Source: a virus. From it: a stretch of 64,000 nt of DNA. The notes under the pieces are model-generated. The model did not search any database. It saw only the letters and a program-made list of their open reading frames with translations, and was not told the DNA's origin. The position numbers and the translations under genes are program-made. Location: positions 96,001-160,000 of the IMG/VR virus record IMGVR_UViG_3300020045_011333. One strand, written 5' to 3'. Positions 21,179 through 53,059 of this stretch are shown here, piece after piece (position 1 is the first letter of the stretch; every line of letters starts with the position of its first letter).

Positions 21179-21317
21179 AAGGAATGTATCCTGAAATAAT
21201 AACTAAAGAAGTATCCACGCCCGTTTTCTTTAAATTTTTAGCTATATAAGGCGGAACTATTAATTTAAATTCTAAAGCTTTCAGCCAACCTTCAATATTT
21301 TCTTTTTCACTCGGCAT
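21168..21317 (-). CDS. Small hypothetical protein (49 aa, not in ORF track)
   Basis: MPSEKENIEGWLKALEFK... fills the gap and overlaps both neighbours. Confidence 0.45.
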   Translation of the reverse strand: MPSEKENIEGWLKALEFKLIVPPYIAKNLKKTGVDTSLVIISGYIPYAE

Positions 21318-22896
21318 AAAATTTACCACTCGGTGACATGGTTAGCATGACTCGCTTGCCGTTTAGGTATGTGCCGATACTGGTAGGGGACCAAGCCGAT
21401 AGGCCTTTGTTGTATCCCATATCGAGTTCACCTAGTACGCCTGCGACCCAAATCCCGTCATACACAGCGCAATGATGGGAGTGAGCAATGTTAGCCCTAG
21501 TACCCATTCTAGAGAAAGCTTTACTACTAGCCCTAGCACCATGCGCTCCTAAGTGACCATGCATCCCGCCTTCGATTTCAGTGTTATAAATTTTATAACC
21601 TTTATCTTCAGGAACAAAGACAACACTATCAGCAAGATCAATATTATAACGCTTGATGGACTCCCAAAATACATTATAATGTTTATTCTTTTCACTAATA
21701 GCTTTATATTTACCTAACTGTGTTTCAAGAAAGAAAATAGCATTGACAGGATCAGTTTTGTAATCGCCATATTTAAGCCACTTTAATAGAGCCGTATCAT
21801 GATTAGATTCAACCACAATGCTCTTGCACCAATCTCGTCTAGTTTGATAAAGAAAATTAGCTGCGTCCTTCATTGTATCGGATATAGATTCAGTGCCGTT
21901 CACAAACATTTCAAATCTGAAATGAGGATCATTTATGTTGTGGTGATTTCTATTTTTAAAATCAATTGTGTCATGGAAAAATTGTTCATAAGGGCGTAAG
22001 TGATCTAATAGACTATCATTAGTAATAGTTTTTTTAGTTTCAAGATCAAAGCCAAAAGACGCTAAGGCACTAATTTTATTAAGTTTTTCGTAATGAATAT
22101 CGCCGTGAGTCAGAGCGGCAATTCTATGACCGGTTGTTACACCAGAACTTGTTACGTGACGATCTAGATCGTAAAAATTGCCTGTATCATCTTCACCTAA
22201 AAGGTGGCGGCAAAAGAATTCACCATTGGCACAGATTTCCACTAGTACTGCACCATAGCTATGGTGAAATTCTGCGATTAGACCAGCGCGTTTCGGTACG
22301 TAGTTTGGCTTAGAAATAGTTCCAGTAGTCATGACAACTTTAGCTGGATCACCCTTCATCATAGGTACGCTTTCGATACGGACTTTTGCATGTGGAATAA
22401 TTCCCCACTTAGATTCAGTGTAGGTCTTGAGGCCTAGCAAAGGATCTGAAGCTGTGGGAAGGATGTTCATTTCTCCACAAAAAACTACATTGTTTCCTAA
22501 GATAACTCTATCATTTGTGAGATAAGGCCCAACTTCTAATGGAAATGTAACTTTATGCTTACTGTGATCTTCAAATAAGGATTTGTTATAGGTATAGCCA
22601 GATACCATAAGTTCAGCTTCTAGGTAATCGGCATAGACTTTTAAAGTTTCAAAAAATGGATGAATTTTAGTTGAGTCTTGACAACTAGTTAAGATGTAAC
22701 GTTTGACAACTCCCTTTTTCTTAGGAGCTTTAATAATAACTGGCTTGACTACTTTACGCTCTGTTAGTACAATCGATTTTGCTCTTTTGGCCCAATCAGA
22801 AAAAGTAGACTTAGGAATGTTAAGAGCTTTAGCAGCTTTCCTAGCGGAACCATATTTTTTAATAGATTCTAAAATTTGCTTATCAGTTAATTGCAT
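21307..22896 (-). CDS. N-terminal HTH + calcineurin-like metallophosphoesterase (possibly T5 A1-like nuclease)
   Basis: HGDIH, HDTID, ESNHD, HGH and AHSH metal motifs; N-terminal GSARKAAKALNIPKSTF HTH. Confidence 0.65.
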   Translation of the reverse strand: MQLTDKQILESIKKYGSARKAAKALNIPKSTFSDWAKRAKSIVLTERKVVKPVIIKAPKKKGVVKRYILTSCQDSTKIHPFFETLKVYADYLEAELMVSGYTYNKSLFEDHSKHKVTFPLEVGPYLTNDRVILGNNVVFCGEMNILPTASDPLLGLKTYTESKWGIIPHAKVRIESVPMMKGDPAKVVMTTGTISKPNYVPKRAGLIAEFHHSYGAVLVEICANGEFFCRHLLGEDDTGNFYDLDRHVTSSGVTTGHRIAALTHGDIHYEKLNKISALASFGFDLETKKTITNDSLLDHLRPYEQFFHDTIDFKNRNHHNINDPHFRFEMFVNGTESISDTMKDAANFLYQTRRDWCKSIVVESNHDTALLKWLKYGDYKTDPVNAIFFLETQLGKYKAISEKNKHYNVFWESIKRYNIDLADSVVFVPEDKGYKIYNTEIEGGMHGHLGAHGARASSKAFSRMGTRANIAHSHHCAVYDGIWVAGVLGELDMGYNKGLSAWSPTSIGTYLNGKRVMLTMSPSGKFYAE

Positions 22897-22929: not shown

Positions 22930-22958
22930 ACTCTATCACATAATTTTTAAAAAGTCAA
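22930..22958 (-). promoter_or_regulatory. Sigma70-type promoter
   Basis: TTGACT-N17-TAGAGT; spacer nearly identical to the 9193 promoter (ttttaaaaatt.tgtg). Confidence 0.7.
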
Positions 22959-23671
22959 GCAAAAATATCGCCGGTATTTATCTGCTTCATCATCTCTGCA
23001 CCATCTGAAGTCACAATAACTCCTCTTGTCGTAACAGGATCAGGAACCTTAAAAAAGAATGTTCCTAACATGTTCTCTGCGCCAAAGGTTTTCCAAACAT
23101 CAACACCAGCTTCTGAAAGCTTAGTTTTTATCTGTTGAACGGAGACGCCTTGCAGTTCTTTCTGACTCCACATAGATTGTGCCACTTGCTGATAAGCATT
23201 CGAGGCAGCATCAATAAACCTAAATCTTAAACTATCTATAGCCGCTTTAACATCCCCACCATATACCCTAGCATCAAATCCAGTGTAACTAGTGCCTGAA
23301 GTGTACTTAAAAGTCTCCGCAAATGTTAAGCTACAATAACTTGACATTAAGGTAGCTAATTTAACAACTCGACCAGAATGTGGATGTTCTATTAATCCTT
23401 TATTGTTACGATCCATACGAGGGGACCAAATTAGAGTAATTTCATCTGATTGCTGATAAGCTACTGTAGGCCTAAATTTTACCATTAAGCCGATAGTAGT
23501 TTCTACCATTGCTTCTTTCAAATGGGTATCAAAAGGCTTGATGCAGCCTTTTGTAAATTTAGAAAAGCCGTGACCATCTAATCTAGCTATAACGTATTTA
23601 TCAGATGGAATATATGTTTCAACTGAATCTTCCAATTCTTTCAGGTAATCAAACTCTTCCAAATTTTTCAT
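22955..23671 (-). CDS. Thg1-like 3'-5' polymerase (tRNA-His guanylyltransferase family)
   Basis: ARLDGHGFSKFT, YQQSDEITL and FDARV. Confidence 0.9.
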   Translation of the reverse strand: MKNLEEFDYLKELEDSVETYIPSDKYVIARLDGHGFSKFTKGCIKPFDTHLKEAMVETTIGLMVKFRPTVAYQQSDEITLIWSPRMDRNNKGLIEHPHSGRVVKLATLMSSYCSLTFAETFKYTSGTSYTGFDARVYGGDVKAAIDSLRFRFIDAASNAYQQVAQSMWSQKELQGVSVQQIKTKLSEAGVDVWKTFGAENMLGTFFFKVPDPVTTRGVIVTSDGAEMMKQINTGDIFA

Positions 23672-24938
23672 TTATTTCTCCAATTACCTTTTCAATACCA
23701 TCATCGAAGTGCTGTAAGATAATATCTTGTAACACAGCGCCGGGTATAGGCTGATATTCTGATAAAAATCCTTTAGCATTTTCTTTTTCAAAGAAGAATT
23801 TCACCATACGGATAATTTCAGAAGTTTCAAGAGGCATAATTTCAATCACATCATCAAAACGTCCTTTACGAAACAGTGCAGGATCAAGTTTGGTGAGATG
23901 GTTAGTGGTTGCAACAAGAATGAAGTTCTCAGGGCTATTGATACCATCTATGGCATTTAGAAGCTCAGCCAGAGAGCTAATGCTGAATTTAGGTGTCTCA
24001 GCAGGTTTGTGTGGCTCATCATCCTCTAAGGGGTCTTCACGCTTTGCTGTGATAGTATCTATATCAATATCTTCCATGATACCTAGATAAGCAGTACTAT
24101 TGTCAGAAGTTGCATAATTATCTGGATAATCGTTTATATCATTCAAAGCCATAGTTAATCCAGCTAAACGAGATGGACTAACCATTACAACGTCTCTATC
24201 AGTAAATCCTGCAATATATTTTGCTAGAGTAGTTTTACCTGTTCCGGGAACACCATGCAATAGAATTGCGTACTTATAAGGAATACCTCTAGATTCGTAC
24301 CATTGACGATTTTCAAGAAAAAACTTAATACGCTTTTCTATATGACTAAGAATTTCAGGATCGATGAAAACACTTTCACGGTCACGCTTAGGAATATCTT
24401 TTAAATGCTTCATCCATTCTTTACTGAGATTATAGACTTTAGTTTTATTTCTATTTTTATTCTTCTTTTCGGTAAAAAATTCATCAAAAAGCTTAATCAC
24501 TTTGGCTTTCTTTTTGAAAAACATCGTAAGTGTTAAATTTTGTTTAAATTCTCTTGAATCACTTTTTTCTTTTTCACGACTGATCTTAACCAAATGACCA
24601 CGAAAATACGACCAAGACGAGCCTAGACCCACAGACATAGCTTCTTTATCAAGAACATTTCTACGGCTTAAGAAGTTGATCGTATTTCGATTCAGTTCTG
24701 TTACGATATCAACGAAATTTTCATTGTCACTGAATACTTCAACAGAAATCGTGGAACGATTGTAAAGGGCGTTCCAGATTTTACCGGGTATATTCTTAAG
24801 AGCGTATAGCGCACCAGATAGAGCTACTGTACCCATACCAGCGATAAGCATTTGATTGTTAACCTGACTCTGAAGCCAAGTATGGAATTGTGAGTTAGCT
24901 AAATCGGTTACTGTAGCTATGTCCATTTTTTTACTCAC
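23649..24938 (-). CDS. BCS1-like membrane-anchored AAA+ ATPase
   Basis: N-terminal TM segment; WYESRGIPYKYAILLHGVPGTGKT, MEDID, ELLNAIDG, TTNH..LDPALFRKGRFD. Confidence 0.85.
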   Translation of the reverse strand: MSKKMDIATVTDLANSQFHTWLQSQVNNQMLIAGMGTVALSGALYALKNIPGKIWNALYNRSTISVEVFSDNENFVDIVTELNRNTINFLSRRNVLDKEAMSVGLGSSWSYFRGHLVKISREKEKSDSREFKQNLTLTMFFKKKAKVIKLFDEFFTEKKNKNRNKTKVYNLSKEWMKHLKDIPKRDRESVFIDPEILSHIEKRIKFFLENRQWYESRGIPYKYAILLHGVPGTGKTTLAKYIAGFTDRDVVMVSPSRLAGLTMALNDINDYPDNYATSDNSTAYLGIMEDIDIDTITAKREDPLEDDEPHKPAETPKFSISSLAELLNAIDGINSPENFILVATTNHLTKLDPALFRKGRFDDVIEIMPLETSEIIRMVKFFFEKENAKGFLSEYQPIPGAVLQDIILQHFDDGIEKVIGEINEKFGRV

Positions 24939-27093: not shown

Positions 27094-28116
27094 TCATCCA
27101 TAGTTATCTCTCATGAAAATTGCACTATGTTCATCAATAATTTGATTTAAATGCATTTCATATATAACTTCATCCATCCAAGCCTCATCGACTTTTTCAG
27201 GTAAATCAGATACTAACATCAATTGTTCTAATTTGTCAAGGTTATTTTCTAACATATTAGCAATTTCACGATACGGATGCTCGCCTCGTTTAATGGTTAA
27301 TAGTTCTTGAGCATTATACCTAGGGAAAATAATATCGCCCGTTTGTAATAATTCCATGGCTTGCTCTGATACTCTAATGGCATGATAGAGGGCTTTCCAA
27401 TCCACACCTTCGTTTTTCTCAGCCGCAAGCGCTCTAGAGCCAAATTCATCAAAGGCTCGTTTATAGATGGCGTAAGCTTCTTTTAAAGCAATGTTGTAAC
27501 CTACTTTACGATTAACTACTTCCAAATATTTCACTAATTCAGCGGAACCTTTAGCTACGGGTAGTTCAATAATTTCAGCATGTTCATTGATTAAGCAAAA
27601 ACATTCAAAGTAATGTTCAAAGTCAGGAACATCTTTGATTTTGGCTGTTGCTCCGTAAGCGCTGATCCATGAACCGAAAAGCTCTGTGGCGTTACGAGCC
27701 GCTGCTACTCGTGATCCTCGAATCCCATATTTGTTGGATTGTTGCCGACAGTAACCTACGAAGCCTTTGATATCACGAGCAATTAATTTATTTTTGTTAG
27801 GAAGAATTGTATCTTTCCATTCATTAGACATAAATTCTGCTTGTTCTTCTCTGACATGCAATAGTTCTTGCGCCACCATATCTCCACGGCGGAGCATATC
27901 AAAAAATTTAAGAATAGAGAAACTTTCATCATCCACATCATCTACAGTATTTTTAACTTTATCACTGCCAGTTGATTTGGAGATTACTTTTTGAGTGTTT
28001 TGCATAATAAGGCTTTTGGCGTCAGGTACGTGCACACCTTTATAATCAGTATCACTAGTTGGTGTTGTTGTTCCGTAAAGCGCAGACCCAAACTTCAGAC
28101 GAATTAATGAGTGCAT
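27094..28116 (-). CDS. Pol-beta superfamily nucleotidyltransferase (RlaP-like)
   Basis: FGSALYGTTTPTSDTDYKGV; DWKALYHAIR; LLTIKRG. Confidence 0.8.
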   Translation of the reverse strand: MHSLIRLKFGSALYGTTTPTSDTDYKGVHVPDAKSLIMQNTQKVISKSTGSDKVKNTVDDVDDESFSILKFFDMLRRGDMVAQELLHVREEQAEFMSNEWKDTILPNKNKLIARDIKGFVGYCRQQSNKYGIRGSRVAAARNATELFGSWISAYGATAKIKDVPDFEHYFECFCLINEHAEIIELPVAKGSAELVKYLEVVNRKVGYNIALKEAYAIYKRAFDEFGSRALAAEKNEGVDWKALYHAIRVSEQAMELLQTGDIIFPRYNAQELLTIKRGEHPYREIANMLENNLDKLEQLMLVSDLPEKVDEAWMDEVIYEMHLNQIIDEHSAIFMRDNYG

Positions 28117-32073: not shown

Positions 32074-32415
32074 TCAATTTTGGTCTAAACTGTTCCAAGA
32101 AACATATTTAAATCCGATTAAGATATATTCTTCGTCATAAGCTTCATTATAGAACCATTGTTCCGCATTTTCTTTAGTGACGTGAACCATATCAAGGAAC
32201 ATTGGTTCGCCATACTCACTGTCTTTAACTACAGTAAGCCAACCATCTGTACTATTTACTCGTGTAAAATTTTCTCTAAATGTAGCATTTTCAAAAATTG
32301 CTACACTTAAATCATCAAACCTAACCACAACTTCGTCATGGACAGAGGTGTAAATGACTTCTACTTCTCCATAAAAGTCACTTACATATTTCTCATATTT
32401 ATTAGTTTCTGTCAT
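32074..32415 (-). CDS. Hypothetical protein
   Basis: Packed ORF. Confidence 0.55.
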   Translation of the reverse strand: MTETNKYEKYVSDFYGEVEVIYTSVHDEVVVRFDDLSVAIFENATFRENFTRVNSTDGWLTVVKDSEYGEPMFLDMVHVTKENAEQWFYNEAYDEEYILIGFKYVSWNSLDQN

Positions 32416-33407
32416 AAATTACTTTCAATCTTTTTAATGTACCAATCTCGTGAGGCTTGAGCCACACTTTTAGCTACAACTCTCCACTCCAAACCAGAAG
32501 CTTCCAATTCATTTACGCTTTCTTTTTTAACGTCTGCGCCAACCCATCCCATGAATGGGCCAATATTTTTACTATTTAATTCCCCATTACAAGCTTCAAC
32601 TAATCCCTGCTCACATCTAGCTTCAGTGACGAATTGTGTTGTGAATGTTTCAGTGCCAGCAAGAATAATAGGATCAATTGCTACAAGGGCTTTAAATTTA
32701 CTAACCTTAGAATTAGAATGGCTTTCACCTTTGGCTTTAAAGAGATACTGAGAACGGTATTTCTTATGTTCGCCTTTAGTCAGCCAGCCATCGGCAGGAT
32801 AGAATACAAAACCTTCGCCAATTCCATCAATACCAAACTTTTCTTTAATAAAAGGATCAGATTTATCACAATCATCTACAAGTAAAGAGATATCAGATGT
32901 AAATTTTTCCATAGAACTATGGAGACGAAAATCTACAACGAATTCAGATGTACTCCATGGTAGTACATAGGTGTTAGGCGTATCCATTACATATAGTTTT
33001 ATGTTATCAGGTTCATATACCCAAACATTTGTTTCGGGAAAATATACAGAAAAGGGGAAGAAAGCTTTCTTTTCAATCTGAGATACAGCTACACCTTTTT
33101 GAACTCCGGGACCGGCCCATTCTCCATAGATGATGAAAGTTGTGCCATCCATTGGAGTAATGTACTGCTTAACTGTCTCAAGCCAATTAGCAAAACCTGC
33201 GTTATCATTATCAATAGACACTAAGCCGGTACGCTTGCCGCCTTTAATAATACCATCAGAAGATACAACTATTGCTGCATTTGTCCCATGAAGTTTAACT
33301 TTTCCACGATACGTTACAGTAGGGCGATCTTCAATTTCAAAAGCCCGCTTAACCATAGCATTTACATCGCTGAACTTTTCAATACTTGGAAACTTAATAA
33401 ATGTCAT
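32412..33407 (-). CDS. RNA ligase, Rnl2 family
   Basis: KLHGTN motif I, YGEWAG, GEGFV and FKAKGE. Confidence 0.85.
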   Translation of the reverse strand: MTFIKFPSIEKFSDVNAMVKRAFEIEDRPTVTYRGKVKLHGTNAAIVVSSDGIIKGGKRTGLVSIDNDNAGFANWLETVKQYITPMDGTTFIIYGEWAGPGVQKGVAVSQIEKKAFFPFSVYFPETNVWVYEPDNIKLYVMDTPNTYVLPWSTSEFVVDFRLHSSMEKFTSDISLLVDDCDKSDPFIKEKFGIDGIGEGFVFYPADGWLTKGEHKKYRSQYLFKAKGESHSNSKVSKFKALVAIDPIILAGTETFTTQFVTEARCEQGLVEACNGELNSKNIGPFMGWVGADVKKESVNELEASGLEWRVVAKSVAQASRDWYIKKIESNL

Positions 33408-35028: not shown

Positions 35029-35541
35029 TTATAAATACTTTTTAATATAATCAATTGCAATACATGAATCGTAGATATAATCGAAGTTTTCAGTCATGCT
35101 AGGAGCTTCATAGTTATCTTGCATATTTTTTAATACGTGTAAAGGAATATACTTCCCTTCCGAACCCACCCGCTTATAAAGTCTCCAAGCCCAATCTTCG
35201 GGGATTTCGAATACAACGGCAATCTTAACATAACTATCAAATTTGTCAAGGATTATCTTTCTCTTTTTGGAAGAAAGATTAGTCTGATCCCATACTACAT
35301 TAAACTCTTTGATTTTAGCCATACGAGCATCAGCTTCAATTAATTTGGAAGCTTCGCCAACGTAATCTTTAAAAACTTCATTATAAGTTTTATTCACATT
35401 CTTAGCAAAATTATCAATATAGTCATCAGAGGAAATAGTGAGAAATTCTAAACAAGTTTCTTGTTTAAGCCTTGTCCTGAACGTTGATTTCCCTGTCCCC
35501 GGAAGGCCTACTAGCATTATCAGTATTGGTTTCTTCATCAA
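35029..35541 (-). CDS. Polynucleotide kinase-like P-loop kinase (AAA_33; PseT N-terminal domain)
   Basis: LVGLPGTGKST, ISSDD, WDQTNL..KKR. Confidence 0.8.
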   Translation of the reverse strand: MMKKPILIMLVGLPGTGKSTFRTRLKQETCLEFLTISSDDYIDNFAKNVNKTYNEVFKDYVGEASKLIEADARMAKIKEFNVVWDQTNLSSKKRKIILDKFDSYVKIAVVFEIPEDWAWRLYKRVGSEGKYIPLHVLKNMQDNYEAPSMTENFDYIYDSCIAIDYIKKYL

Positions 35542-37091: not shown

Positions 37092-37303
37092 GTTTCATTA
37101 GGGGCTGATATAAAATAATAAGAAGAACCACTAATTAAAGAGTTATCACACAGTTTAGCAACCATGACATTACCATTATAACCAACTATTTGACCCACAA
37201 CCGTCCCATTCTTTTCTGAATGAATATAGGCCATACTTCCTACTTCGGGAGCGCAACTAGATAAAATCACAGTAACTATAGATAGTAAGAATATTTTCTT
37301 CAC
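37073..37303 (-). CDS. Lipoprotein
   Basis: GTG start overlapping the ligase stop; MKKIFLLSIVTVILSSC lipobox. Confidence 0.7.
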   Translation of the reverse strand: MKKIFLLSIVTVILSSCAPEVGSMAYIHSEKNGTVVGQIVGYNGNVMVAKLCDNSLISGSSYYFISAPNETCPPKP

Positions 37304-38478
37304 CAGACACAATCCTTTAACAGAGTAGTACGTAACTTTTCGAACTTTTGATCTACATCGCAAGCATCTTTGAGGCGCTTCATCAGTTCTTCATAAACCG
37401 TTTCCACTGGAAAACCTTTATCCCAAAGGCTAAAGATGATTTGCTTAACCAGAACGTCAGCTTTTGAGTTTAGAGCGAAATCTTTACGTGACATATTTTT
37501 TTCAACAATTTTTGAAATCAAAGCTTTGATAGCAATAGAAAGATAGGTAACATTTCTATTTAGAGTAGATTCATAAGCTTCAGCTTTAGTCAAATCATCA
37601 GCTAGCATAAAAGGCTTGAGGTCGTCTAATTGTCCATCCAGAAGAACAGCAACAAGATTACGCTCTTTTTGAATCTTATCTTTCGTGCGATGAAGATTAA
37701 TATAAGCCGTGGTCTTAATTTTAAGCATATGTCCGTCATGAAAGCGAAGAACTTCACCCTCAGTCAATTCTTCTTTTTTAGAATTGTATATTGAGTCGGA
37801 GTACGAGTGCATGTCCCCGATAGGGGTTTTATCAATGGAAACTACTTCAATATCAAAAATATCTCTGACAGTTTGAATCATATCTTCATATGACCAATAT
37901 TTACCGCTGTAATTTTCTCTCACCGCCGTTAGTACAAGTTTATCAATAGGATGATCTACGACGATTCTATTCTTACGGCTGCACCACTCAAAAATAGGAG
38001 TAAGATTTTCAATACGACATTCTTTTAGAAAATTATTGATGCCTTCATGATTATGTTCTGCCAACCAAGTTTCAGTTTGCATAGAAGTGTCAGTTACACC
38101 CATTTTAGTGGCCCAACGAAATCCTCCACCCAAAAACATAGGATGAACCATAGAGCCGTCAAGTTTCTCTAATCGATCATAACCCTTTGTAATATCTACA
38201 TTTATAGCTAGAGTTTCCTCACGTTCACCGAAATTCATGAACTTATGATAAGGTCTGGAAATTAGTTCGCCAGAAGCATTATCAAACTTAATGCCGCGAA
38301 GTTCGCGGCGAATAGCCGTGTTGACATCCGTTACGGGAGGGAAGGTTTTGTTGCACGGAAGTTTGTAGTTTATGACGGTATAGCCATCTTTTTCTACGAT
38401 ATAAAATAAATCCTCATCGCCCTTGATAGCCTCAAGAACTTGAGAGATATGTACGATCCTAGGAAATTCATAATTCAT
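37300..38478 (-). CDS. RNA ligase, T4 Rnl1 family
   Basis: ELRGIKFD, SRPYHKFMN, EKLDGS, EGEVL and LKIKT..Y. Confidence 0.9.
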   Translation of the reverse strand: MNYEFPRIVHISQVLEAIKGDEDLFYIVEKDGYTVINYKLPCNKTFPPVTDVNTAIRRELRGIKFDNASGELISRPYHKFMNFGEREETLAINVDITKGYDRLEKLDGSMVHPMFLGGGFRWATKMGVTDTSMQTETWLAEHNHEGINNFLKECRIENLTPIFEWCSRKNRIVVDHPIDKLVLTAVRENYSGKYWSYEDMIQTVRDIFDIEVVSIDKTPIGDMHSYSDSIYNSKKEELTEGEVLRFHDGHMLKIKTTAYINLHRTKDKIQKERNLVAVLLDGQLDDLKPFMLADDLTKAEAYESTLNRNVTYLSIAIKALISKIVEKNMSRKDFALNSKADVLVKQIIFSLWDKGFPVETVYEELMKRLKDACDVDQKFEKLRTTLLKDCVW

Positions 38479-40222: not shown

Positions 40223-41038
40223 TTAATGGCCTTTTAATTTTTTATGAGGAAATTTATTTCCATTAGGAAAAATAAGGAATTCTCCGTCATAAGTAACACC
40301 TTCTTTACTAAAATGTTTAATAATACGATTATACCAAAACGGCATATATTTTCTAATTTCATCCAAATTTAGATTATTTTTAACAGTATTAATTTTATTT
40401 ATTGTTATAACGACATTCCCTTTTATGTAGCCTAAATCAGGTATAATTTTATCAATTGATGGACTATCGGTTCTAACTCCATCACTCTGCCAATCTAAAG
40501 AATTATCAGAATAAAAACATTTATAATTCTGTTTTTCAAATAGATAAATAACATAATTTTTGTCAATTTCAAAATCTACTAATTTTTTGCTACTTCTACT
40601 TTGCATCGTAGTTAATTTTTTATTTAAATAAAAATTTATATTACTTTTATTTCTTTTTCTTATTTTAGTAGCCATACAAACACTACAAAATGATTGCCGA
40701 TACCTCTTATTTTTATCTACGAATGGAAATAAAGAAATGTCCTTAATTCTTTCACAAATAGAACACTTTATTTCTGTGTCGTTTATCAAATTAATTTTAG
40801 TTCTTGTTCCTCCATTATGTTTAAGCCCTAACGCTGATATTCTACCTGCAATCGCTCTTATATTAAAATTTAATTTTTCAGCTATTTCTTTATTATTTAA
40901 GCCCTCTGCATGTAGAGTTATAATTTCCTCTTCAAAATCTTTTGTGGGTTTAATAGGTTTAAAATTATCAAGCTTACTAATTTTAAAAATCTCCCGGCGC
41001 GACTTGAAAACAAGGTACGCCTCTATCACGCCATGCAA
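40223..41038 (-). mobile_element. HNH-type homing endonuclease-like protein with HTH and CxxC motifs
   Basis: HTH (GLNNKEIAEKL), CSIC..CSVC, SPSIDKIIPDLGYIKGNV..IN. Confidence 0.65.
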
Positions 41039-41453
41039 CTACAACCTGATCTCTATCATCAAATGCAAAGCTAGGGTTGTAACCCGCTTCTAAAATTTTA
41101 TCTAAAAGTTCCATCTTAACAATATTATCGGCTCGATAATCACCTTTAGCCCTCATAAACAGAACGTGGTACTTAACGCCATGTTTTACTAGCCATTCTT
41201 CAGTTACTCCGCGTGATTGTTCACCACGTCCAGAGCAGAGAACGATGCGCCATCCAGCGTCATACAAAGCGTTCACCACATCAATTACGTGTTGATGAGG
41301 GAGGTCATGCGGAATACCACGCTCGAATGCTGCGTAATTTTTTGGTTTAGAATTAATATAAACTCTTCGGTGTTGCAGATCAGCAATTGTTCCGTCGATA
41401 TCTACGATAATATCACGCATCCGAAAAACTCCCATACCTAAAGAAATAGTCAA
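40983..41453 (-). CDS. Polynucleotide 3'-phosphatase (HAD; PseT C-terminal domain)
   Basis: VDIDGT, CSGR, FDDRDQVV..WR..G..CFQVAPGDF. Confidence 0.9.
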   Translation of the reverse strand: MTISLGMGVFRMRDIIVDIDGTIADLQHRRVYINSKPKNYAAFERGIPHDLPHQHVIDVVNALYDAGWRIVLCSGRGEQSRGVTEEWLVKHGVKYHVLFMRAKGDYRADNIVKMELLDKILEAGYNPSFAFDDRDQVVVAWRDRGVPCFQVAPGDF

Positions 41454-50416: not shown

Positions 50417-51844
50417 TTATATCTTAGCATTTTCTCTAACTTGTTTAAAAGTAATATGTGGCCTAATCTGTTCACCTGTATCCCAAACCGGCTCAAGATA
50501 GTTTCTTGTCCCATGACTCGCTCGATCAAGATCATCCTTTCGGATCGAAACAAGCTTCTCTCCGTTATGAACCACGGCTTGCTTTCCAGCTTTACTGGAC
50601 TTAGACATATCTGTCTTGGGACGCTTTTGAACATCAATACGCTTCCCGCCAATAGTGATTTCGTTTGTCTTCATCGCCCATGAGAAATCATCTCTCATAG
50701 GAGCCTGAAGCAGTTGTCCACCACAGCCAAAAACCACATTTTCAACTGAGAAACCAGCAAACATAATGGCACCTAAGATTTCATTAATTGAATTACGATT
50801 AATACCATCACCTTGAATTACGCGAACCTTTGGATTAAGTACTTTAAATCCTTTAGAATTGACAGTACTTCCAAATTTTTCATCTAGTAATTTAAGTACA
50901 CGAGGAACAACTTCTGTTGGCGAACCAGAATCTGGACGAACCACAATGAACCCATCTCTGGCTTCAATCTTAGCTTTGTGGTCTACTCCGATATATTCGG
51001 AAACAAATCGATCCAAATCATAACTATCTGCTACGATAGAAATGATAGGAAAGCCCATATCGGTGAAGGTATCTATTACAGTTCCGACAAAGGCACTTTC
51101 GCCTTCTTCCCCGTTCATAGTAGTAACGCTATGCTCTGTAGCTGGGACACTTATAAGTAGTGGTCCATCAGTATCTAAGTCATGGTTGTAATATACCACT
51201 CCCGCTTCTATGGCTTCAAGGGTATCTGAGCCAAGAAATGACACTAAGTGTCCTAATCCTCCAAGTGCGGCGCTTTCACCGGAAGACACTGATCTGGCTC
51301 CAAAATCATTAAGCGCAGCGGCTAAAGTCATTGGATCATTAATATCTAGATCAGATGTTTTTTTGTAATATTCCGCAATGTTTTTCTTAATGGCCCTTGA
51401 TAGAGTAGCAACACTACTAGGATACCAAATTCCACGTAGCAAACTAGTTTCAATTTCAGCTACAATTTCAGGCATTTGTGTTGAAGAAATTTGAACCACA
51501 GGAACACCATGAGGAACGATAGTTCCTTCTGGAAGTGCCTCAATTTTTACCGGAACGTAGCCATTGAATTCTTCAATAACTCTGATCCATACTTCTTTAT
51601 TAAAAGGAATCAAAGCTGATTTGGCATATTTCTCTGCTTTATATAAATCTTGATACGTTATTTTCTTATCTAAATATTCAAGAATATAAGCTTGAAGCCC
51701 GAAGAAAACAATTTCATCGGTCCAACCACTACGTGCTTCGATATAAGATACAGCTTCTGTAATATCTTTTCGAACCACAAATAGATGTGAAAATTTGTAA
51801 CAATCGTTAGCAAGTATAATTGATCTGTTTAGTAAGTCTGTCAT
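50417..51844 (-). CDS. nadV: Nicotinamide phosphoribosyltransferase (Nampt)
   Basis: DCYKFSH, DFGAR, GSDT, PATEHS, SIVADSYD, VRPDSG, VIQGDGI and FGCGG. Confidence 0.93.
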   Translation of the reverse strand: MTDLLNRSIILANDCYKFSHLFVVRKDITEAVSYIEARSGWTDEIVFFGLQAYILEYLDKKITYQDLYKAEKYAKSALIPFNKEVWIRVIEEFNGYVPVKIEALPEGTIVPHGVPVVQISSTQMPEIVAEIETSLLRGIWYPSSVATLSRAIKKNIAEYYKKTSDLDINDPMTLAAALNDFGARSVSSGESAALGGLGHLVSFLGSDTLEAIEAGVVYYNHDLDTDGPLLISVPATEHSVTTMNGEEGESAFVGTVIDTFTDMGFPIISIVADSYDLDRFVSEYIGVDHKAKIEARDGFIVVRPDSGSPTEVVPRVLKLLDEKFGSTVNSKGFKVLNPKVRVIQGDGINRNSINEILGAIMFAGFSVENVVFGCGGQLLQAPMRDDFSWAMKTNEITIGGKRIDVQKRPKTDMSKSSKAGKQAVVHNGEKLVSIRKDDLDRASHGTRNYLEPVWDTGEQIRPHITFKQVRENAKI

Positions 51845-51882
51845 TGAAAAACCCCTTTTCGTTTGACTGTTGTTAAGTTTGT

Positions 51883-52971
51883 TTAAATATTAATACCTAG
51901 CATTTCACTGATAATAGTTCCATGATCTTCAAACCAAAGATTATTATCGGAAATTTCTGATAATTTAGAAATTGGCACCCATACTGCTTCCATAGCATCA
52001 TCACTACCCTTGACCAAAGGAAGTTTATTAGATTCGTTTTTTAAAACGATTTTAAAAACATGAGTGATGATATGGGCGCGATTAGATCGCCAAGGAGAAT
52101 CAAAAACACGACTCTCTGTTATACGTGCTTCAAGAACTTTATCTGGAACTTTAATTATAGTTTCTTCACGAAGTTCTCTGATACAAGCATTACGTAGGCG
52201 TTCTCTTTTATTCACAAAACCACCCGGCAGTGCAAATTTTCCAGTACCATATTCCCTACCTCTTTTTATGAGAAGGATATGACCCGACTGAATAACTAAC
52301 GAATCAACTGTGGTGTGAGGGCCGTGTCCGTAAATGCTACTATAATTGCTTTCATATAACCAATCAGATTTCAATTTTTCCCAAATTTCAGGATTATTAT
52401 TTATATGATTTTTAATGTAGGCAAGAACCGATATAGGAATCATTTTGTCATAACTAAGATCACCATTAAATAATTTATCGCGAATTCCCGAACTAGATAG
52501 AACTTCATCATTAAAACTATATGGTTGAACCGCAATAGAATGATTCCAACGCACAAAACTATTTAAATAATAACTTGATTCATCCTTTGACATACCTGTC
52601 AGAGCTATTTTATATAAATAATCAGACCAACCAACCCTATGATAGGAGGCTGTTTTAGAGTGTAATTCTATTAGATCATCAACGGATTTTTCAACGTCCG
52701 CGATCCATTTTGAATCATTATCAAAATCTTTTGAAGTTGTAAATAGCACACGATTCCCATATTCTTCTGTTGCTAACTTGAACATTTCAATACGTTCTTT
52801 GGCAATAAAGGGAATTCTAGTGTTTCGCGAAGCGTTGGAGGAACCAACTACTACAATAATGTAATCTGAAACTTTAAGGGTTTCTTTAATTACATCTAAA
52901 TGTCCATTGTGAGGACCGGCGCGAAAACCACCAATAAAAATGGCATAATCATATTTAATATTATTAGTCAT
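51883..52971 (-). CDS. nadM: Bifunctional NMN adenylyltransferase / Nudix ADP-ribose pyrophosphatase (NadM-Nudix, NatV-like)
   Basis: HNGH (HxGH) and SSSGIR; ALPGGFV..RELREET; GSDDA; WFEDH. Start moved to MTNNIK, which has an RBS. Confidence 0.92.
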   Translation of the reverse strand: MTNNIKYDYAIFIGGFRAGPHNGHLDVIKETLKVSDYIIVVVGSSNASRNTRIPFIAKERIEMFKLATEEYGNRVLFTTSKDFDNDSKWIADVEKSVDDLIELHSKTASYHRVGWSDYLYKIALTGMSKDESSYYLNSFVRWNHSIAVQPYSFNDEVLSSSGIRDKLFNGDLSYDKMIPISVLAYIKNHINNNPEIWEKLKSDWLYESNYSSIYGHGPHTTVDSLVIQSGHILLIKRGREYGTGKFALPGGFVNKRERLRNACIRELREETIIKVPDKVLEARITESRVFDSPWRSNRAHIITHVFKIVLKNESNKLPLVKGSDDAMEAVWVPISKLSEISDNNLWFEDHGTIISEMLGINI

Positions 52972-53007
52972 AGATCGAAAACCCCTTCCGATTTGTTTAA
53001 CAAAAGA

Positions 53008-53046
53008 ACTATAGCAAAAGATTCCGCTTTTGTCAAGCGGAATCTT
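53008..53046 (-). promoter_or_regulatory. Sigma70 promoter whose -35 box sits in the loop of a terminator-like hairpin
   Basis: TTGACA-N17-TATAGT; 12-bp arms AAGATTCCGCTT / AAGCGGAATCTT at 53018-53046, followed by TT. Confidence 0.8.
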
Positions 53047-53059
53047 CATTATCATTAAA

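Follow-up and report, generated by a model that had tools for sequence, protein, structure and literature searches.

We found that an uncultured phage encodes an intact Thg1-like protein (TLP) together with a conserved tRNA-His of very unusual make-up. Our preferred reading, to which we give a probability of roughly 60%, is that the TLP is an active templated enzyme with two uses, the repair of tRNA 5' ends and the addition of a nucleotide at position -1 (N-1) of the phage's own tRNA-His. The source record comprises 184,940 bp at 36.5% GC, with 121-bp terminal repeats and an estimated completeness of 100%. The window, the whole 64,000-nucleotide stretch that was analyzed, corresponds to bases 96001-160000 of this record; coordinates refer to the window unless they are marked as genome coordinates.

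A Thg1-like protein gene with an intact active site

The TLP gene (22955..23671, minus strand) starts with ATG and encodes 238 aa. A Shine-Dalgarno sequence, GGAG, lies 5-9 nt upstream of the ATG, and the start of the gene shares 23 nt with the end of the upstream AAA gene. Profile searches assigned the product to the Pfam Thg1 family PF04446 (E=1e-23; score 84.1 bits, curated cut-off 29.2 bits; coverage of profile positions 2-126 of 130) and to PHROG 4717 (phrog_4717), annotated as 'tRNA-His guanylyltransferase' (1e-39), while the Pfam search reported no match to the Thg1 C-terminal profile PF14413. Among solved structures, the top match was the TLP of Bacillus thuringiensis (BtTLP; PDB 4KGK, 6.5e-15), followed by weaker structure-sequence matches to Candida Thg1 (9.6e-06) and human THG1 (3.4e-03). 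An AlphaFold2 model computed from 11 clade sequences (pLDDT 85) superposed on BtTLP 4KGM over the full length with a TM-score of 0.79-0.82 (236 columns; Foldseek E=4e-15), and the top 32 Foldseek matches of this model were exclusively Thg1/TLP structures. As modeled, the fold of a polymerase-like palm followed by a C-terminal domain spans the full length of the protein. The TLP identity lies far beyond chance, and these analyses confirm that the gene exists, is intact and was identified correctly. Promoter and terminator scans returned results at chance level only, and a GTTC-N7-GTTC site within the gene (genome 119061) was set aside as probably due to chance.

We mapped the catalytic residues through the structure-sequence alignment to BtTLP, with residue roles taken from PMC3701042. 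Residues E14, R30, D32, K45, S75-D76-E77 and R135 of the phage protein correspond to E12, R28, D30, K43, S74-D75-E76 and R131 of BtTLP, and K104 and N158 are the equivalents of Thg1 K96 and N161. The phage protein accordingly has the metal-binding carboxylates D32, D76 and E77 (D29, D76 and E77 in hTHG1; D30, D75 and E76 in BtTLP), the NTP-binding arginines R30 and R135 with E14 as the salt-bridge partner, the activation-step residues K45, S75 and N158 (ScThg1 K44, S75 and N161), and the transfer-step residues R30, K104 and R135 (ScThg1 R27, K96 and R133). The sequence-only reading had proposed a Thg1-like gene at 22955-23671 with intact catalytic motifs, and profiles, fold and residue mapping all bear this out. 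With the exception of K45, which is either K or R, the catalytic residues are invariant across the 11 clade members, and the mean column identity of 71% among these relatives indicates clear purifying selection on the TLP. This conservation argues against a non-functional passenger gene, which forms part of an alternative, taken up again below, that we regard as very improbable.

The HINNLYN motif is specific to eukaryotes, and its His stacks on anticodon G36 and underlies tRNA-His specificity (PMC6471195). The human sequence 'CHINNLYN' aligns with 'A-ASNAYQ' in the phage protein (within DA-ASNAYQ), where the His column is a gap, and BtTLP reads 'DASKNSIS' at this position. Because the His is missing, the protein is classed as a TLP and not as a eukaryotic-type Thg1; judged by its sequence, it is a template-dependent enzyme of the bacterial/archaeal type, not a true tRNA-His guanylyltransferase. 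Without the motif by which the eukaryotic enzymes read the anticodon, it should act on a broad range of tRNAs. For BtTLP, a preference for templated addition and the repair of 5'-truncated tRNAs have been described (PMC3061083), and family membership suggests that the phage enzyme likewise adds nucleotides by Watson-Crick templating and prefers 5'-truncated tRNAs (PMC3061083, PMC4820378). The phage protein resembles BtTLP (4KGK/4KGM; PMC3061083, PMC3701042) in its carboxylates, its activation and transfer residues, the TLP-type motif in place of HINNLYN and its length class (238 aa versus 245 aa). However, the structural alignment gives only about 22-24% identity between the two, and the phage copy is virus-encoded.

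TLPs are not new to phages as a kind, and the gene identification itself is ordinary. A tblastn search of GenBank gave homologues in 146 phage records, none of which reaches 40% identity (maximum 38%); Bacillus, Caulobacter, Brevundimonas, Mycobacterium and jumbo phages are among them, and a large share of the homologues is annotated already. These annotated 'tRNA-His guanylyltransferases' (PHROG 4717) are of the same family and size and are likewise phage-borne; one of them, gp143 of Bacillus phage Bc431v3, was discussed in 2013 (PMC3601020). In a published Thg1 phylogeny, viral sequences fall in the archaeal-type group (PMC3245924). The present TLP belongs to a tight clade of 11 sequences (52-62% identity) from uncultured phages, on contigs of up to 183 kb, outside which the next relatives are at most 37% identical. 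An alignment-based scan of viral contigs found relatives where a single-sequence scan found no match; two scans of metagenome contigs yielded no clade member, and a search for a close relative without a TLP found none. Our literature search found no paper characterizing any phage TLP, and the words 'phage' and 'viral' are both absent from a 2019 review on reverse polymerization.

A conserved tRNA-His of neither known bacterial type

A search of the full genome for tRNA-His had been put forward as a check, and it revealed one. ARAGORN was run on tRNA clusters for the His calls, as the tRNA-His covariance model R1 proved not to be His-specific. In the present genome, ARAGORN identified 15 tRNAs, all located outside the window. 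A single one is a tRNA-His(GUG) (genome 75013-75088); its gene has T at -1, the pair C1:G72 and U73, and it encodes the CCA. The phage genome contains neither a HisRS gene nor a gene for a CCA-adding enzyme. Canonical bacterial tRNA-His has G-1, G1:C72 and C73, as opposed to the alphaproteobacterial RRCH type, which has G1.U72 and A73 without G-1 (PMC3064791, PMC3937112); recognition of the RRCH type depends strongly on U72, and G-1 brings it no benefit (PMC3064791, PMC3937112). The phage tRNA-His is neither canonical nor of the G-1-less alphaproteobacterial type.

This tRNA is maintained in the clade. A syntenic Gln-His-Val-Leu tRNA cluster is kept in the relatives, C1-G72, C2-G71, G3-C70, U4-A69 and U73 are invariant in the clade tRNA-His, and compensatory changes occur in the lower acceptor, anticodon and T stems. 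In contrast, the base at -1 varies among the four distinct clade versions (T, T, G and A), so the genes cannot be relied on to supply a -1 nucleotide. Among 185,579 species genomes (GTDB), none contained the clade-specific D-arm/anticodon pattern in exact form. Among 79 cellular tRNA-His genes that share the D-arm, 77 have G at -1 and 74 are fully canonical, while C1:G72 occurs in none. Among annotated tRNA-His species, U73 has been described from Trypanosoma brucei only, whose system is G-1-independent (PMC4338351).

Several other features of the phage tRNAs were observed. The tRNA-Val gene directly abuts tRNA-Leu with a 0-nt spacer (genome 67500-76500) and carries only C74 of the CCA; tRNA-Gln and tRNA-Asn have no encoded CCA, though the phage is without a CCA-adding enzyme. 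Four tRNAs (Ile, Glu, Trp and Val) have G1.U72.

We infer the catalysis, the in vivo substrates and the nucleotide added as follows. The enzyme would perform a two-metal, ATP/GTP-activated, 3'-5' addition of nucleotides at the tRNA 5' end, templated through Watson-Crick pairing by the 3' strand of the acceptor stem. In one use, it would rebuild truncated or mis-cleaved tRNA 5' ends alongside the Rnl1, split Pnk, second ligase and RlaP encoded by the phage. In the other, RNase P would cut the phage tRNA-His at C1 and the TLP would then add the missing -1 nucleotide. Given U73 and C1:G72, the templated product would be A-1, opposite U73, the alternative being a G.U wobble. The added residue would supply the extra 5'-phosphorylated nucleotide required by a canonical HisRS.

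Published work bears on both uses. Canonical HisRS chiefly needs the extra 5'-phosphorylated nucleotide and less the guanine itself (PMC4338351, PMC9976931), and Thg1 has been proposed as a backup for RNase P mis-cleavage (PMC3245924). In vitro, BtTLP is able to place A-1 opposite U73 (PMC3061083, Table 1). However, U73, the likely -1 template in the phage, supports the weakest templated reaction of BtTLP, about 60-fold slower than G-1:C73 (94 versus 5500 M-1 s-1; PMC3061083), and with U73 in place, histidine identity is weaker for E. coli HisRS (G-1.U73 suppressor; PMC9976931). Moreover, a host HisRS that works without G-1 would make any addition to the tRNA-His unnecessary. A stronger version of the second use, which we regard as less likely than not, is that the clade has a private tRNA-His identity, chargeable only after its own TLP adds A-1, or a wobble G-1, opposite U73.

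The improbable alternative mentioned above is that the TLP serves another substrate, such as unusual phage tRNA-like RNAs or mismatched tRNAs in need of 5'-editing, where it is not a passenger. Dictyostelium TLP4-type enzymes act on non-tRNA substrates, and the TLP-bearing Caulobacter phage CcrColossus (JX100810.1, near 62.4 kb) carries a tRNA-His gene with A73, CCA and a mismatch at the first pair (U1xU72), and its product may by analogy undergo 5'-end editing like that known from amoebal mitochondria. Against this, none of the 15 tRNAs of the present phage has a 1:72 mismatch, G.U wobbles being the only deviations, and we therefore rejected 5'-editing of mismatched tRNAs for this phage. No specific link to odd tRNA-derived RNAs emerged.

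Repair genes and clues to the host

The TLP gene belongs to a long series of minus-strand genes that form a block for replication and nucleotide metabolism, in which the order of transcription is thymidine kinase-like, small ORFs, HD dNMP phosphatase, BCS1-like AAA, TLP, T5 A1-like, NUDIX and PolA. The BCS1-like AAA ATPase (23649..24938, minus strand) matches PF00004 (2.4e-17), BCS1_N (3e-08) and phrog_7485 (1e-64), whose function is not assigned. The gene for the T5 A1-like 'DNA transfer protein' (21307..22896, minus strand; phrog_1745, 4e-169) lies immediately downstream of the TLP and marks a conserved slot. The AAA-TLP-A1 order is kept in 5/5 close IMG/VR relatives (tblastn synteny), and a distant TLP locus (L034) has a 32%-identical BCS1-like AAA copy within 6 kb.

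A tRNA-repair kit, identified by Pfam searches, lies on the same strand 3-18 kb upstream of the TLP, which is not adjacent to any of the repair genes. It consists of an RlaP-like nucleotidyltransferase of the RNA-repair-pathway Pol-beta family (27094..28116; PF10127, 3e-09), a PF09414-type, Rnl2-like RNA ligase (32412..33407; PF09414, 1e-09), a stand-alone P-loop kinase resembling the polynucleotide-kinase domain (35029..35541; AAA_33, 2.6e-17), a T4 Rnl1-type tRNA ligase with the tRNA-specific C-terminal domain (37300..38478; PF09511, 1.1e-25; T4_Rnl1_C, PF20819, 6.3e-07) and a stand-alone Pnkp-type HAD 3'-phosphatase (40983..41453; PF25109 HAD_PNKP, 3.4e-38), all on the minus strand. The RlaP-like gene is found 3.4-4 kb upstream of the TLP in the four relatives whose contigs extend that far. 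The P-loop kinase is 36% identical to the annotated PNK of Rhizobium phage RHph_I1_18. Elsewhere on the minus strand (50417-53055), we observed a NAMPT gene (PF04095 and NAMPT_N) adjoining an NMNAT-like cytidylyltransferase-NUDIX fusion, a pair whose sequences suggest phage NAD+ salvage of the kind used against NAD-depleting defenses.

In phage T4, Pnk and Rnl1 repair the tRNA anticodon loop and thereby counter the anticodon nuclease PrrC. The present phage encodes a T4-type break-repair set, comprising an Rnl1 with the tRNA-specific C-domain, a 5'-kinase and a 3'-phosphatase, and the logic of mending tRNAs hit by defense would be the same. In T4, by contrast, kinase and phosphatase are not split into separate ORFs as they are here, and the TLP would mend 5' termini instead of loop breaks; to our knowledge, T4 has no TLP. 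In Rhizobium phage RHph_I1_18 (MN988519.1, 164930-169984), genes for a CCA-adding enzyme, DUF1127, TLP, Rnl1 ('RNA ligase A') and PNK are contiguous and have the appearance of a full operon for the repair of both tRNA ends and tRNA breaks; G-1 is not used by the host of this phage. The TLP of the present phage differs from this cassette copy in its position between the BCS1-like AAA and T5 A1-like genes. Of 37 TLP loci in distant phages, just 4 have repair genes at a distance of 10 kb or less (tblastn).

The sequence-only reading had favored repair of tRNA 5' ends damaged by host defense nucleases, on the premise of a rhizobial host in which His-identity addition would be unnecessary. Repair is plausible in view of the nearby kit and the RHph_I1_18 cassette, but the premise behind it is not supported: nothing points to a rhizobial host, and a GC content of 36.5% is far from that of rhizobia. 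Nor can it be assumed that His-identity addition is needless, as the phage tRNA-His is without the G1.U72/A73 set of the RRCH type (PMC3064791). Maturation of phage tRNAs, which that reading had placed second, is at least as likely as repair of defense-inflicted damage. We know of no defense nuclease that trims tRNA 5' ends.

Repair as the sole function, with an RRCH-like, anticodon-driven host HisRS and a TLP that restores the 5' ends of host and phage tRNAs, appears unlikely to us. A host HisRS with no need of N-1 would allow the phage tRNA-His to work as transcribed, and the repair kit is at hand. Some clues point to such a host. The A1-like protein has its best GenBank matches in phages of Sphingobium, Erythrobacter, Microcystis and Caulobacter, so that Caulobacter phages are among the relatives by this protein. 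Three LexA boxes of the alphaproteobacterial type (GAAC/GTTC-N7 direct repeats) lie within 63 bp (genome 45179-45241). The phage tRNA-His has a 9-nt D-loop with U20a, which is favored by Caulobacter HisRS (PMC3064791). In addition, TLPs are retained in phages of Caulobacter, Brevundimonas and Rhizobium, hosts that do not use G-1 (PMC3064791).

Other evidence speaks against repair alone. The G72 and U73 of the phage tRNA-His conflict with the RRCH need for U72 and A73; in Caulobacter, U72C costs 91-fold (PMC3064791). The 9-nt D-loop is widespread beyond the alphaproteobacteria, and since the broader D-arm pattern is phylum-unspecific, it says nothing about the host. A12 in the phage tRNA-Cys and the absence of U15.G48 from its tRNA-Glu are both features of the non-RRCH grade (PMC3937112), and 36.5% GC is unlike Caulobacter as well as rhizobia. 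Furthermore, IMG/VR phages with RRCH-type tRNA-His copy G1.U72/A73 exactly. This was observed in the AT-rich viral contigs L041-L046, L051-L052, L054-L055 and L057-L060, whose tRNA-His have exact G1.U72, A73 and the 9-nt D-loop, which shows that phages of G-1-less alphaproteobacterial hosts copy the host identity set exactly. The TAXI/NMT1_3 gene, considered as a host indicator, led only to phage relatives. As a separate observation, GAAC-N4-GTTC palindromes occur nine times against about two expected, two of them 45 bp apart (genome 128152/128197; window 32152/32197).

TLPs and tRNA-His types across phages

Archaeal TLPs and Dictyostelium TLP2 add G-1 post-transcriptionally (PMC3245924; bioRxiv 10.1101/2025.10.12.681950) and are a precedent for a TLP that supplies an N-1 absent from the tRNA-His gene, although their G-1 is templated on C73. 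By this model, the phage TLP would be present solely for the -1 nucleotide of the phage tRNA-His, with any repair incidental, an alternative that we consider quite unlikely. It is favored by the clade tRNA-His itself, in which G-1 is not encoded and base -1 is not conserved, by the lack of a phage HisRS, and by the co-occurrence of the TLP and the clade-type tRNA-His on both of the contigs long enough to hold the two (G000 and G005). It is disfavored by the missing anticodon-reading motif of tRNA-His-specific Thg1 (PMC6471195), by the 44 kb that separate the TLP gene from the tRNA cluster, and by the poor performance of U73 as a template in BtTLP (PMC3061083).

The comparison with other TLP-bearing phages cuts both ways. 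A G is absent at -1 in three TLP-bearing lineages, namely the present clade, G024 (T-1/U73) and G037 (L066; T-1/C73). The TLP-bearing Brevundimonas phage Kikimora has T-1 and, as in this clade, C1:G72, together with C73. Kikimora and G037, with their G-1-less C73 tRNA-His, resemble the archaeal and Dictyostelium case and, on sequence grounds, offer the clearest cases in which a phage TLP may add a templated G-1; they count in favor of dedicated maturation. However, the tRNA-His encoded by eight TLP-bearing lineages (G006, G011, G012, G022, G035, G042, G072 and G074) is of the canonical G-1:C73 type, and a tRNA-His is missing from at least six complete TLP-bearing genomes, including G010, G028, Goe8, 2L372D and BcepSaruman as well as TimeGriffin, which has a TLP and no tRNA genes whatever. 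Because of these lineages and genomes, the family-wide role of the TLP cannot be the maturation of phage tRNA-His, and since most TLP phages either encode G-1:C73 or are without a tRNA-His, N-1 addition to phage tRNA-His is lineage-specific at best. The complete genomes that have a TLP and no tRNA-His speak for repair. In phages of RRCH hosts, the tRNA-His is of the host type G1.U72/A73 in RHph_I1_18 and G1.U72/G73 in C1 and CcrSC.

G-1-less tRNA-His genes are nonetheless conspicuously frequent alongside TLPs. Among TLP-negative records found by pattern, 1 of 37 is without G-1 (G054, 83% complete), a count that serves only as a weak control because host tRNA-His genes at provirus ends contaminate this set. 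The pattern matches in L216 and L259 and an 86-nt 'His' of G013 were rejected as not credible tRNA-His genes.

The interest of this system may lie less in the TLP gene than in the odd, conserved tRNA-His that may depend on it. With an intact TLP and a conserved tRNA-His in which the nearly universal encoded G-1 is absent and the rare U73 is present, the clade offers a clean test of in vivo N-1 addition by a TLP of the bacterial world, and cultured analogues exist in Brevundimonas phage Kikimora (T-1/C73) and Rhizobium phage RHph_I1_18 (TLP in a repair cassette). The repair role, if true, would mean that some bacterial defense or stress damages tRNA 5' ends. A private identity, if true, would provide the first demonstration that a -1 nucleotide is added post-transcriptionally in a bacterial virus, and a natural tRNA-His with A-1:U73 might likewise be without precedent; this tRNA-His would then be functional solely when the phage enzyme is present.
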